A stretch of 64,000 nucleotides of DNA from Escherichia coli (GTDB lineage Bacteria; Pseudomonadota; Gammaproteobacteria; Enterobacterales; Enterobacteriaceae), in NCBI RefSeq assembly GCF_003334305.1, contig NZ_QOWS01000007.1. One strand, 5' to 3'. Below, one piece after another: positions 12,019 through 59,548 of this stretch. Under the pieces are notes generated by a model. That model worked only from the letters and a program-made list of their open reading frames with translations. It was not told where the DNA came from and ran no database searches. The stretch's first letter is position 1. Every line of letters begins with the position of its first letter. The translations under genes were made by a program, and so were the position numbers.

Positions 12019-12387
12019 ATGAAGAAAATCATTTGTCTGGTCATTACACTACTAATGACACTCCCCGCTTACGCGAAGTTAACTGCCCATGAAGAAGCCC
12101 GCATCAACGCCATGCTGGAGGGATTAGCACAGAAAAAGGATTTGATATTTGTGCGCAACGGTGATGAACATACCTGCGATGAAGCGGTTTCTCATCTGCG
12201 TCTGAAGCTGGGCAATACCCGTAACCGCATTGACACTGCCGAGCAGTTTATTGATAAGGTTGCTTCGTCGTCATCGATTACCGGGAAGCCGTATATTGTG
12301 AAGATCCCCGGTAAGAGCGATGAGAACGCACAGCCTTTTTTACATGCGCTAATTGCGCAGACGGATAAAACGGTGCCTGCGCAATAA
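12019..12387 (+). CDS. yfeK: Uncharacterised secreted protein with signal peptide
   Basis: 122-aa ORF with N-terminal signal peptide ([19 protein letters not shown]); matches E. coli YfeK. Confidence 0.85.
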
Positions 12388-12389
12388 TC

Positions 12390-13301
12390 TTAAATCCCCG
12401 CCCCCTGGCTAAAATGCTCTTCCCCAAACACCCCGGTGGAAAGGTAGCGATCGCCACGATCGCAGATGATCGCTACCACCACCGCACCAGGGTTAGCTTT
12501 TGCCACCCGCAGTGCTCCGGCAACCGCGCCGCCGGAGCTGACGCCACAGAATATTCCTTCCCGCACTGCCAGTTCGCGCATGGTGTTTTCTGCATCGCGC
12601 TGATGAATATCCAGCACCTCATCCACCAGAGAAGCGTTGAAAATCCCCGGCAGATATTCCGCAGGCCAGCGGCGAATGCCGGGAATACTGCTGCCTTCTT
12701 CCGGCTGCAGGCCAACAATCGTTACTGGTTTGGATTGTTCGCGCATAAAGCGTGAAACGCCGGTGATAGTGCCGGTTGTTCCCATGCTGGAGACAAAATG
12801 GGTAATGCGCCCGCCGGTTTGCTGCCAGATTTCCGGCCCGGTAGTGGTGTAATGGGCGTAAGGGTTATCGGGATTATTAAACTGATCGAGCAGCTTTCCT
12901 TCGCCACGATTCGCCATCTCCAGCGCCAGATCGCGCGCACCTTCCATGCCCTGCTCTTTGGTGACAAGAATCAGTTCCGCACCATAAGCACGCATCGCCG
13001 CACGGCGTTCCTGGCTCATGTTGTCGGGCATCAGCAATTTCATGCGATAGCCTTTCAGCGCGGCAATCATTGCCAGCGCAATGCCGGTGTTACCACTGGT
13101 GGCTTCGATTAAGACATCACCCGGTTTAATTTCCCCGCGCTTTTCCGCCTCGACGATCATCGAAAGTGCCGCACGATCTTTCACCGAACCTGCCGGGTTA
13201 TTGCCTTCCAGTTTTAACCACACTTCACTGCCGTTATCCGGCCCCATTCGCTGCAACTTCACCAGAGGCGTATTGCCTATTGTTTGTTCTAATGTACTCA
13301 C
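12390..13301 (-). CDS. cysM: Cysteine synthase B (O-acetylserine sulfhydrylase B)
   Basis: Matches E. coli CysM from VSTLEQTIGNTPLVKLQRMG; GTG start at 13299-13301 with upstream GGATAGAG RBS, preferred over the track's 26-codon extension. Confidence 0.93.
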   Translation of the reverse strand: MSTLEQTIGNTPLVKLQRMGPDNGSEVWLKLEGNNPAGSVKDRAALSMIVEAEKRGEIKPGDVLIEATSGNTGIALAMIAALKGYRMKLLMPDNMSQERRAAMRAYGAELILVTKEQGMEGARDLALEMANRGEGKLLDQFNNPDNPYAHYTTTGPEIWQQTGGRITHFVSSMGTTGTITGVSRFMREQSKPVTIVGLQPEEGSSIPGIRRWPAEYLPGIFNASLVDEVLDIHQRDAENTMRELAVREGIFCGVSSGGAVAGALRVAKANPGAVVVAIICDRGDRYLSTGVFGEEHFSQGAGI

Positions 13302-13324
13302 GATCTCTATCCATACGTGGTGTT

Positions 13325-13364
13325 GCCTGATGCGACGCTTGCGCGTCTTATCAGGTCTACAGGT
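13325..13364. repeat. REP (repetitive extragenic palindromic) element
   Basis: gcctgatgcgacgc...gcgtcttatcaggtctac imperfect palindrome typical of E. coli REP, between cysA and cysM inside the cysPUWAM operon. Confidence 0.75.
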
Positions 13365-13434
13365 TACAAACCTTGCCATTAAAAAGCCCGGATCGCGGGA
13401 AGCGCCTCCGGGCGTTTAACATTCACTCAACCTA

Positions 13435-14532
13435 TCAGGCGCTTTGTGCGAGAGCAAGTTCCTCATCTCGGGTTTCGATACGCTCGTCGCCGTTATACAG
13501 CCGCGCATGTTGCAGACCAACGAATAAACGCTCGCCACGCTGCGGGGCATCGTCGCCATGCATCACGACCGTCAGCGGTTCGTTGTACCACCCCAGCGGC
13601 TGCACCACTAATTGGGTGTAGTGACCTTTCGGGCTGGCTTCCAGTACCTGTACCGGCAGCGGCGAATCGAGACTGGTACGGCGGCTGATATCCACTTCCC
13701 ACGGGCGCAGGAAGAGATCCACCGGACCCTGATACGCAGGTGTGTAGCCCAGCGGCCAGCGATGCGCGCCAACATGGAACTGCCCGCCGCGAATGGTTCC
13801 CTGCAGGCGGTTCACTTCGCCCATAAATTCGAGTACAAAACGGGTCGCTGGTTCGCGCCATACCTGATTCGGCGCATCAGCCTGTTCAATATTCCCCTGA
13901 CTCATCACCACTACACGATCGGCTACTTCGGTCGCCTCTTCCTGGTCGTGGGTCACGAACACGCTGGTGAATTTCAGCTCTTCATGCAGTTGACGCAGCC
14001 AGCGACGCAGCTCTTTACGCACCTGCGCATCCAGCGCGCCAAACGGTTCATCAAGCAGCAGAATTTGCGGTTCTACAGCCAGCGCGCGCGCCAGCGCCAC
14101 GCGCTGTTTCTGGCCGCCGGAAAGCTGTGCCGGATAACGATCTGCCAGATGAGCAAGCTGCACCATCTCCAGCAATTTTGTCACTTTCGCTTTGATGGCT
14201 GCGGCATTCGGGCGCTCGCGACGTGGCAGCACCGTCAGGCCAAAAGCGATATTGTCGAACACCGTCATATGACGGAACAGCGCGTAATGCTGGAACACGA
14301 AACCGACCTTGCGATCGCGCGCGTGCAGTCGGCTGACGTCGGTGCCGTGGAAGCGAATATGCCCGCTGGTTTGATGCTCCAGCCCGGCGATAATGCGCAG
14401 CAGCGTGGTTTTCCCGGAACCGGACGGCCCCAGCAACGCGACCATCTGACCTGAAGGAATATCCAGTGAGATATCGTTCAGCACCTGGGTGCGACCAAAC
14501 GACTTCTTAATATTGGCAATCTCAATGCTCAT
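13435..14532 (-). CDS. cysA: Sulfate/thiosulfate ABC transporter ATP-binding subunit
   Basis: 365-aa ORF with Walker A (GPSGSGKTT), ABC signature (LSGGQKQR) and Walker B; matches E. coli CysA. Confidence 0.97.
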
Positions 14533-15397
14533 GATGTTCCTCCTGCTGTGCGCGTTTATCCTGATTCTCCAGGCGCCACTGCAACATACTTTTTAAAAAC
14601 AGGGTGATAATCGCCATCAGCGTTAACAGTGCCGCAGCGGTAAAGGAGCCGACGGTGTTGTAGTCCTGCTCCAGCAATTCAATCTGTAACGGCAGCGACA
14701 GGGTTTCGCCGCGAATCGAGCCGGAAACCACCGACACCGCGCCAAACTCGCCAATTGCGCGGGCGTTGGTCAACACCACGCCATAAAGCAGCGCCCAGCG
14801 AATGTTCGGCAATGTGACGCGGCGAAACATCTGCCAGCCAGACGCGCCAAGCAAAATCGCCGCTTCGTCTTCCTGGCTGCCCTGGCTTAACATCACCGGC
14901 ACCAGCTCGCGCACCACAAACGGACACGTCACAAAGATGGTGACCAGCACCATTCCGGGCCAGGAGAACATAATTTGCAGATTATGTTCATCCAGCCAGC
15001 CGCCCAGCGGGCCGTTAGAGCCGTAGAACAGCAGATACACCAGACCGGCAACCACCGGCGATACGGCAAACGGAATGTCCAGTAGCGTCAGCAGTAACTG
15101 GCGTCCAGGGAAGTTAAAGCGCGTCACCAGCCAGGCCAGCAGAATGCCGAACACCAGGTTTACCGGTACGGCAATCAGCGCGATCATCACCGTCAGCCAG
15201 ATGGCGTGCAGCATGTCCGGATCGGCCAGATTCTGTAAAACCGGCATCAGCCCCTTGCTGAATGCCTGCACGAAGATGTAAATCATCGGCACCAGCAGGA
15301 TGAACGCTGAAACCAGCATCCCGATGCCAATTAGAAACCATTTGCCCCAGTTAATCGGGCGCGCGTCATAACGCTTCAATTGGGTAACTTCCGCCAT
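14522..15397 (-). CDS. cysW: Sulfate/thiosulfate ABC transporter permease
   Basis: 291-aa polytopic permease; 11-nt overlap with cysA; matches E. coli CysW. Confidence 0.96.
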
Positions 15398-34720: not shown

Positions 34721-34750
34721 CGCCTTTACTCCCTGTTAGTTGTTATTTAT

Positions 34751-34836
<86 letters not shown>

Positions 34837-36024
34837 TTATTGCGCCGCTGCGTACAAGCCGACAATCTGCTCCAGGCTGGCGGTACGCGGGTTGCTGCGC
34901 AGACAAATATCTTCCTGCGCGGCCTGCGCCCATGCACCGTAATGCGCAGATGTCGCGCCAACATCGCCCAGTCGTTTACCAATCCCAACTTCCGCAATCA
35001 GCTCACTTACCGCGTTAATAGCGTCATGATCGTCGGATTTTTTAGTTCGCAGTGCCCGACCAATCTGACTAAAGCGTTCACGACAAACCATCCGGTTAAA
35101 TTCCATCACTGTTGGCAGCAACATGGCGTTCGCCAGACCGTGCGGAATATGCAGCGCCGCGCCCGGCTGATGCGCCATCGCGTGGCACAACCCAAGACCC
35201 GCACTGGAAAACGCCATTCCCGCCATACATGAAGCCAGCAACATGCTCTCGCGCGCGGCAAGGTCGTGACCGTAGCCCACCGCTTTCGGCAGCGATTTGC
35301 CAATCATCGCAATGGCACCAATCGCCAGACTGTCGGTAAACGGTGTAGCGTTCAGGGCGCTGTATGCTTCAATGGCATGGGTTAACGCATCAATGCCGGT
35401 CATCGCCGTGACATGCGACGGCACACCTTCGGTCAATGCGGCGTCGAGGATCGCCACATCCGGCATCAGCGAGGCATGGGCTAACACCTGCTTGCGCCCG
35501 CTCACCGCGTCGATAATCACCGTTACATTGGTGGTTTCAGAGCCGGTTCCGGCGGTAGTTGGAATGGCAATCAGCGGCAAGCGCGGTTGCAGAACGCTGG
35601 TTTCTGACATCTCTGCCAGCGTGCTATCCGGGTTCGTCACCAGCAACGCCACGGCTTTCGCCGCATCCAGCACCGAGCCGCCGCCAAATGCGATCACCCC
35701 GTCACAACCTGACTCACGCAACTGCGCCACGGCTGCACACACGTCGGTAATGCACGGTTCGCCCACCGGACATAGCCAGAGCGTCATGGCGATACCTTTA
35801 ACGGCCAGGCTACGCGTCAGCCCGGCGGTCATCCCTGCCTGATGCAAAAAGCTGTCTGCCATCACGAACAGATGTTTCAGCCCACGCGTTTGCGCTTGCT
35901 GTCCGCAACTGCTCACCGAGCCCGGACCGCAAAGCGTCACCGGTGGAACGCTAAATGTTTTTACCCGTTGCAGATTCAGGGTATCGAACGCCTGAAAGAG
36001 CGCGGTCTGCAATTCATTTTGCAT
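34837..36024 (-). CDS. eutG: Iron-containing alcohol dehydrogenase of the eut pathway
   Basis: 395-aa ORF from MQNELQTALFQAF matching E. coli EutG; the track's 9-codon extension is rejected. Confidence 0.93.
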   Translation of the reverse strand: MQNELQTALFQAFDTLNLQRVKTFSVPPVTLCGPGSVSSCGQQAQTRGLKHLFVMADSFLHQAGMTAGLTRSLAVKGIAMTLWLCPVGEPCITDVCAAVAQLRESGCDGVIAFGGGSVLDAAKAVALLVTNPDSTLAEMSETSVLQPRLPLIAIPTTAGTGSETTNVTVIIDAVSGRKQVLAHASLMPDVAILDAALTEGVPSHVTAMTGIDALTHAIEAYSALNATPFTDSLAIGAIAMIGKSLPKAVGYGHDLAARESMLLASCMAGMAFSSAGLGLCHAMAHQPGAALHIPHGLANAMLLPTVMEFNRMVCRERFSQIGRALRTKKSDDHDAINAVSELIAEVGIGKRLGDVGATSAHYGAWAQAAQEDICLRSNPRTASLEQIVGLYAAAQ

Positions 36025-57100: not shown

Positions 57101-57222
57101 ATGCGGTGGGTACTGGCGTAATGGGCGGGATGATTTCAGCTACTATTCTGGCTATTTACTTCGTGCCGCTGTTCTTTGTGCTGGTGCGCCGCCGCTTCCC
57201 GCTGAAGCCGCGCCCGGAATAA
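54109..57222 (+). CDS. acrD: RND-family aminoglycoside/multidrug efflux pump
   Basis: 1037-aa 12-TM RND transporter matching E. coli AcrD. Confidence 0.97.
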
Positions 57223-57227
57223 GCAAT

Positions 57228-57261
57228 AAAAAAGGCGACATGCCAATGTGTCGCCTTTTTC
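57228..57261. terminator. Rho-independent terminator after acrD (bidirectional potential)
   Basis: A-tract, 7-bp stem ggcgaca/tgtcgcc with 8-nt loop, TTTTT, 6 nt after the acrD stop. Confidence 0.85.
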
Positions 57262-57320
57262 AACTTTCCGATTAAGAACCTGCTCAGCGGGTTCTTGCTG
57301 TTTATACTTTGTCTCGGGAA

Positions 57321-57380
57321 TTACTTACGAAGCATAACTTCGATAAAGTCTTTCCAGTTCCCCAGTTCACGTTCAATCAT
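57321..57380 (-). CDS. ypfM: Small protein YpfM (19 aa)
   Basis: My own translation of the minus strand gives MIERELGNWKDFIEVMLRK with GAGAGG RBS; matches the known E. coli small protein; not in the ORF track because of its size. Confidence 0.8.
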   Translation of the reverse strand: MIERELGNWKDFIEVMLRK

Positions 57381-59476: not shown

Positions 59477-59482
59477 GCTGAG

Positions 59483-59548
59483 TGGCCGGATAAGGCGTTC
59501 ACGCCACATCCGGCCATGATGCCTGATACAGTCTTATCAGGCCTACCC
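59483..59548. repeat. REP element pair
   Basis: ggccggataaggcgttcacgccacatccggcc and gcctgatacagtcttatcaggcctac palindromic units between ypfN and ypfH. Confidence 0.8.

Follow-up and report, generated by a model that had tools for sequence, protein, structure and literature searches.

The REPs between malE and malF form a barrier that protects the upstream mRNA. In yjdMN, REP325 acts both as an exonuclease barrier that stabilizes RNA and as a partial terminator (Harris et al. 2026, bioRxiv 10.64898/2026.03.23.713779). The same study describes 146 REP-containing tandem gene pairs in K-12, with expression biased toward the upstream gene (Harris et al. 2026). Published work has shown that REPs in tandem pairs can attenuate as well as stabilize, with large context dependence. 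Read-through at E. coli terminators is pervasive (PMC6131387). The junction between cysA and cysM has a REP as well as a hairpin followed by a run of U residues, and it is a clean natural case in which the part played by a leaky intrinsic terminator could be told apart from what a neighboring REP adds.

The window, which is the whole 64,000-nt stretch of DNA analyzed here, is a segment of the E. coli chromosome collinear with strain E2865 at ~99.3-99.5% identity. Its minus strand carries cysP-cysU-cysW-cysA and then cysM. The literature is split on whether cysM belongs to this operon, with 'cysPUWAM' used by some and 'cysPUWA, cysM', as separate operons, by others. The RefSeq K-12 annotation has no feature between cysA and cysM. 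In mRNA sense, the TGA-TAG at the end of cysA is followed by a first hairpin (hairpin 1) that starts 21 nt after the stop, UUUUU, ~20 nt, the REP, 23 nt and the cysM GTG (Table 1). In the alignment, the segment ATGGA(C/T)AGAGATCGTG before cysM is kept in all Escherichia sequences and the GTG start is invariant across genera. At the other end of cysM, 2 nt lie between the end of yfeK (12019-12387, +) and the cysM stop (12390), and E2865 is arranged likewise.

Table 1. Positions of the features at the cysA-cysM junction, in window coordinates
Feature	Position	Strand	Length, sequence or structure	Basis
cysA CDS	13435-14532	-	translation ends ...ELALAQSA, then stop	annotated cysA in near-identical E2865
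cysA stop TGA, then TAG in frame	13435..13437	-		sequence
cysA-cysM spacer	13302-13434	-	133 nt	
Hairpin 1	13386..13413	-	GCCCGGA GGCGCUUCCCGCGA UCCGGGC; 7-bp GC-rich stem and 3-bp apical stem	folding, single-copy
U5 tract directly 3' of hairpin 1	13381..13385	-	UUUUUAAU	sequence; T-run invariant in alignment
65-nt insertion carrying the REP	13315..13379	-	ATGG...ATGG flanks	alignment with short Citrobacter and Lelliottia spacers
REP175, single palindromic unit	13325..13360	consensus orientation (GCC...CTAC) on +	36 nt	
23-nt stretch with weak Shine-Dalgarno region, then cysM GTG (13301-13299)	13299..13324	-	Shine-Dalgarno region GGAUAGAG; cysM start region VSTLEQTIGNTPLV...	
cysM	12390-13301	-	GTG start	

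The first-pass annotation had placed a REP element at 13325-13364, between cysA and cysM. The element is real, and the palindrome itself covers 13325-13360, with the remaining 4 bases belonging to the flank. It is extragenic, lying between the cysA stop at 13435 and the cysM start at 13301. Its plus-strand sequence is GCCTGATGCGACGCTTGCGCGTCTTATCAGGTCTAC, with the terminal CTAC tetranucleotide at 13357-13360, and in the cys mRNA, which corresponds to the minus strand, it reads GUAG-ACCUGAUAAGACGC-GCAA-GCGUCGCAUCAGGC with a GNRA-type loop. A REP consensus regex found 5 matches in the window compared to 0 in each of 30 dinucleotide-preserving shuffles. This regex was fuzzy and allowed a variable loop, and a fixed-loop consensus misses the element because its loop has 4 nt, not 5. 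In a local Rfam search, the naRNA4 model, which is derived from REP325, gave a partial match at 13324-13356 (34.1 bits, E = 9e-4). Going by the Y, Z1 and Z2 consensus sequences, the element would be of the Z2 type.

The REP folds well on both strands. In mRNA sense the fold has an energy of -18.2 kcal/mol (z = -5.7; none of 200 shuffles folded as well), and the antisense fold has -20.6 kcal/mol (z = -4.3). An internal loop in the predicted stem separates a 6-bp helix from a 5-bp helix. When a query containing the REP was run with megablast, it matched a median of 5 and a maximum of 18 places per E. coli genome, compared to 1 place for the neighboring non-REP spacer (70 nt). Presence at this site was counted with an 84-nt query made of the REP plus its unique flanks, which was found in 5408 of the 5426 complete E. 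coli genomes (~99.7%). The REP was also found in E. albertii. Variants among phylogroups keep the pairing, with a G-C to G-U change at the base of the stem and a loop change from GCAA to GUAA, both of which are GNRA loops; the sequences have diverged too little for a real covariation test.

In K-12, the element is catalogued as REP175, at 2539608-2539643, with the label 'Tandem' and the position cysA>cysM (Table S16, Harris et al. 2026). These coordinates map to 13326-13361 of the window. Across the REP, the window matches K-12 base for base, and the two strains have the same spacer. As a catalogued single-unit REP, the element is already known and is an ordinary finding. A canonical BIME was ruled out because the spacer has one canonical unit; hairpin 1 is palindromic but single-copy. 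Unlike K-12, the window strain does not have yfeS and REP174, as ~960 bp of K-12 containing both (NC_000913.3 2537705-2538666) are missing between yfeK and cysM (window 12381-12390). The K-12 data also include an in-vitro Rho-binding peak on the plus strand (2539385/2539407-2539613, window ~13103-13331) that is antisense to the 5' part of cysM and abuts REP175, and a comparable antisense peak abuts REP174 at the 3' end of cysM (Table S16, Harris et al. 2026).

Four REP clusters are present in the window according to the regex and Rfam, at 13325-13360, 34742-34860, 48154-48210 and 59481-59543. This number agrees with the first-pass annotation, which had further stated that three of them lie between convergent or unrelated genes and only the one at cysA-cysM between co-transcribed genes. 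The actual split is two and two. The clusters at 48154-48210 (tkt/ypfG) and 59481-59543 (ypfN/ypfH) are between convergent genes. The cluster at 34752-34834 (Rfam envelope 34742-34860) is a BIME-like pair of REPs in opposite orientations within the 116-nt eutG-eutH spacer of the eut operon, and in K-12 this interval has REP178, likewise labeled 'Tandem' (Table S16, Harris et al. 2026). Since this second cluster sits inside the eut operon, the cysA-cysM REP is not exceptional even within the window.

A few other features of the window were recorded. Two tRNA genes are found at its start (1-153, +), with Rfam tRNA scores of 65.9 and 79.2 bits. A sub-threshold Rfam match to the Hfq-binding sRNA STnc250 is at 57222-57341 (-), with 37.3 bits compared to a gathering score of 42, and it adjoins or overlaps the small gene ypfM (~57321-57380, mapped from E2865). 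A vapBC toxin-antitoxin pair is placed by collinearity with E2865 at the end of the window (~63398-64000), with ypfJ and purC on either side.

Upstream of the REP, hairpin 1 with its U5 tract has the predicted shape of a canonical intrinsic terminator, which the first-pass annotation had missed. The hairpin folds with -17.7 to -19.1 kcal/mol and occurs exactly once in each of the 5426 E. coli genomes, with at least 95% identity. The discriminant d was +14.6 for hairpin 1 with U5 when read in sense and -28.0 when read in antisense, using a formula of the d'Aubenton Carafa et al. 1990 type with modern energy parameters and an approximate threshold. A terminator scan restricted to loops of 3-8 nt made no call in the spacer; hairpin 1, with its 14-nt structured top, falls outside that limit. 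The REP was also considered as an intrinsic terminator and rejected, having the tail AACACCACG, a T-tail score of 0.01 and d = -61.7.

To compare this arrangement across Enterobacterales, CysM was used to scan a genome collection, which gave 80 species loci, 51 of them with adjacent cysA and cysM and both ends aligned. In a loose scan, a sense hairpin followed by a T-run was found in 47 of the 51 spacers, compared to 7 in antisense and 10.6 in shuffles. With the stricter discriminant, 38/51 spacers were positive in sense and 1/51 in antisense. Because the 51 species share ancestry, their spacers do not count as independent cases. Across genera, the stem sequences bear no relation to one another, with GCCCGG.. 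in Escherichia, Citrobacter and Enterobacter, GCGGCC in Cedecea, GGGCGGG in Pantoea, GGCAACCC in Serratia, TGCTCATC in Photorhabdus and CAGCCTGG in Tatumella. On this comparison, the structure and polarity of the terminator-like stem are conserved while its sequence turns over. The asymmetry between sense and antisense, together with the sequence turnover, argues for selection on a putative terminator or attenuator between cysA and cysM.

By alignment, Escherichia, Citrobacter and Lelliottia have orthologous versions of hairpin 1, of the T-run and of the segment from ATGGACAGAG to the GTG. The seventh pair of the stem shows an A-U to U-A swap between E. coli hairpin 1 and the hairpins of Citrobacter and Lelliottia. 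The REP has a much narrower distribution: among the 51 species, it was detected in Escherichia and a single Pseudocitrobacter genome, whereas most Enterobacterales keep the hairpin and T-run without any REP 3' of the T-run. In species with short spacers (Citrobacter werkmanii, Lelliottia, Siccibacter and Cedecea), the T-run is followed by the cysM GTG after only 14-17 nt. This leaves no space for a promoter, so that cysM would have to be reached by read-through in these species. For E. coli, a promoter scan found no sigma-70-like promoter in window positions 12300-14600. CysB-dependent promoters match the consensus poorly and would be missed in this way, and one that serves cysM may lie within cysA.

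The first-pass annotation had proposed that the REP hairpin could act as a 3'-exonuclease barrier or a partial terminator that lowers cysM relative to the transporter genes. This is a documented kind of REP behavior. As the main intercistronic device, the REP would stabilize cysPUWA by blocking exonucleases, terminate part of the transcripts, or both, and in this way would set the ratio of cysA to cysM. The same action in malE-malF and yjdMN, the upstream bias of REP tandem pairs, the stability of the hairpin in mRNA sense and the fixation of the element in E. coli are all in keeping with this role. However, hairpin 1 and U5 lie 5' of the REP, so transcripts ending there would never contain it. 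The REP has no U-tract and differs sharply in d from the upstream hairpin (-61.7 compared to +14.6). It is also limited to a few close lineages, while the hairpin and T-run are conserved across Enterobacterales, mostly with no REP 3' of them. In addition, short REP fragments of 2-4 hairpins had no detectable Rho dependence (Harris et al. 2026). For these reasons we consider it quite unlikely that the REP is the main device at this junction.

Our preferred reading, to which we assign a probability of about 60%, is that the main device lowering cysM would be the ancestral attenuator made of hairpin 1 and U5, with REP175, fixed in Escherichia within the 65-nt insertion, as a secondary element. 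From the sequence, the predicted structures, the copy numbers, the conservation across species and the identity of the REP in the catalogue, we infer the following course of termination, read-through and decay. RNA polymerase coming from the cysP promoter would terminate in part at hairpin 1 and U5. The terminated cysPUWA transcripts would end 5' of the REP, with hairpin 1 itself shielding their 3' end. Transcripts that read through would carry the REP hairpin and then cysM, with its GTG start and weak Shine-Dalgarno region, and as a consequence of partial termination the output of cysM would be below that of the transporter genes. On the read-through RNA, the REP stem-loop could be a further, mostly redundant barrier against 3'->5' exonucleases that come in from the cysM side, and it may add a pause or a Rho-assisted termination site of the kind described for REPs elsewhere. 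The split naming of the operon as cysPUWAM or as cysPUWA and cysM is what a leaky terminator would produce. Fixation of the REP, with variants that preserve the stem, could mean that selection maintains it for more than a 'redundant' role.

The REP lies within a 65-nt insertion between the T-run and the ribosome-binding region of cysM, present in Escherichia and one Pseudocitrobacter genome. In Pseudocitrobacter faecalis (L005, 1401-1568), the flanks of the insertion are like those in E. coli, AATGGCAAGGTTTGTA ... ACGTATGGACA, but there are two REPs inside, and the one that resembles REP175 is inverted relative to E. coli. P. faecalis CysM is 98% identical to E. coli CysM. Either the REP content at this site was replaced in place, or the locus was exchanged between lineages. 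The spacers of Enterobacter, Kluyvera-like genomes, Pluralibacter, Citrobacter youngae ATCC 29220 and related genomes contain an inverted pair of REP-family palindromes, GCCCGGTGGCGC..GCTTACCGGGC-CTAC ... GTAG-..., and the last palindrome arm abuts the T-run (L014, L016-L019, L048, L013 and L004; ~locus 2400-2485). In Citrobacter and Lelliottia, the terminator stem is a single REP-family palindrome. A related palindrome was also seen after the cysM stop in Citrobacter youngae (L008/L048, 3420-3445).

These arrangements suggest that the putative terminator stems are derived from REPs in the sister genera and that REPs turn over at a fixed slot. By its alignment, E. coli hairpin 1 is a diverged and now single-copy ortholog of the REP-family palindrome in Citrobacter and Lelliottia, and the cysA-cysM spacer is an apparent hotspot of REP turnover. 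In every spacer arrangement, a GC stem is directly before the T-run and the cysM start region is intact.

Another possible explanation is that the REP inserted as a selfish and neutral element, has no effect that could be measured at the RNA level and persists in the only slot where it is tolerated, after the T-run and before the ribosome-binding region of cysM. The confinement of the REP to Escherichia and a single Pseudocitrobacter genome among the sampled species is consistent with this explanation, and so are the different REP pair at the P. faecalis site and the REP-like inverted pairs in the spacers of other genera. The T-run and the segment from ATGGACAGAG to the GTG are both intact, as a tolerated insertion would leave them. 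In addition, Harris et al. (2026) describe terminal REPs as having no global effect on half-life. Fixation in 5408/5426 genomes and in E. albertii, with variants that preserve pairing, speaks weakly against neutrality. Overall, we find a neutral insertion rather doubtful.

The insertion also changes the distance from the putative terminator stem to the start of cysM. This stem is 14-17 nt from the GTG in Citrobacter and Lelliottia compared to ~80 nt in Escherichia, where the REP stem ends at -24. A structure 14-17 nt from the GTG is within reach of the initiating ribosome. The REP could therefore act on cysM, either by altering translation initiation or by stabilizing the 5' end after endonucleolytic cleavage of the spacer, and the insertion would also increase the distance between the terminator hairpin and the ribosome-binding site. 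This geometry is the point in its favor, but the Shine-Dalgarno region is weak in both spacer arrangements, and we regard such an action on cysM as highly improbable. An effect on the upstream gene was considered as well. A REP within ~15 nt of the upstream stop codon reportedly lowers translation of that gene. The first base of REP175 (13360) is 74 nt from the cysA stop (13435), and thus down-regulation by a stop-codon-proximal REP is ruled out here. A role of the REP at the DNA level or in antisense has a single hint, the plus-strand Rho-binding peak seen in vitro next to REP175.

Published data on transcript ends and read-through were searched for this junction. The supplementary tables of Adams 2021, TERMITe 2025 and SMRT-Cappable-seq 2018 (PMC6131387) have no cysA, cysM or coordinate entry for transcript 3' ends, and those of RepRanger 2025 have no such entry either. 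A literature search on cysA, cysM, REP and terminator found nothing specific to the cysA-cysM junction.

A broader view is that the spacer would be a conserved and possibly condition-responsive attenuator that, across Enterobacterales, uncouples CysM, a cysteine synthase specific to thiosulfate, from the sulfate/thiosulfate transporter. REP-family palindromes would have supplied its stem again and again, so that a hotspot of REP insertion would have been recruited for regulation, with REP175 as the latest layer modulating read-through or decay in Escherichia. We offer this only as a speculation that is unlikely to hold in full. The importance of the junction is small, as the REP was already catalogued and the proposed role is textbook or recently re-documented. 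Its value lies also in illustrating REP turnover at one intergenic slot, along with the apparently REP-derived terminator stems in sister genera.

Compared with the known systems, REP175 is like REP325 in yjdMN and the malE-malF REPs in lying between tandem co-transcribed genes, of which the upstream one is expected to be favored. As with a malE-malF-type stabilizer, it is 3' of a cistron, transcribed and folded in the sense direction. REP325 differs in having 12 palindromic units and no separate terminator, while REP175 is a single unit preceded by a canonical hairpin-U5. Hairpin 1 with U5 resembles the leaky intra-operon terminators of prs-dauA and dapA-bamC (SMRT-Cappable-seq, PMC6131387), as it lies between genes that are usually listed as one operon. 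Unlike those two, its termination is a prediction. REPs that double as Rho-independent terminators have been named 'REPt', and the stems that abut the T-run in Citrobacter, Enterobacter, Lelliottia and Kluyvera-like genomes, GCCCGGTGGCGC..GCTTACCGGGC and often an inverted pair, match this description. E. coli differs from 'REPt' in that hairpin 1 is single-copy and no longer a member of the repeat family, and REP175, the repeat that is present, has no T-run.
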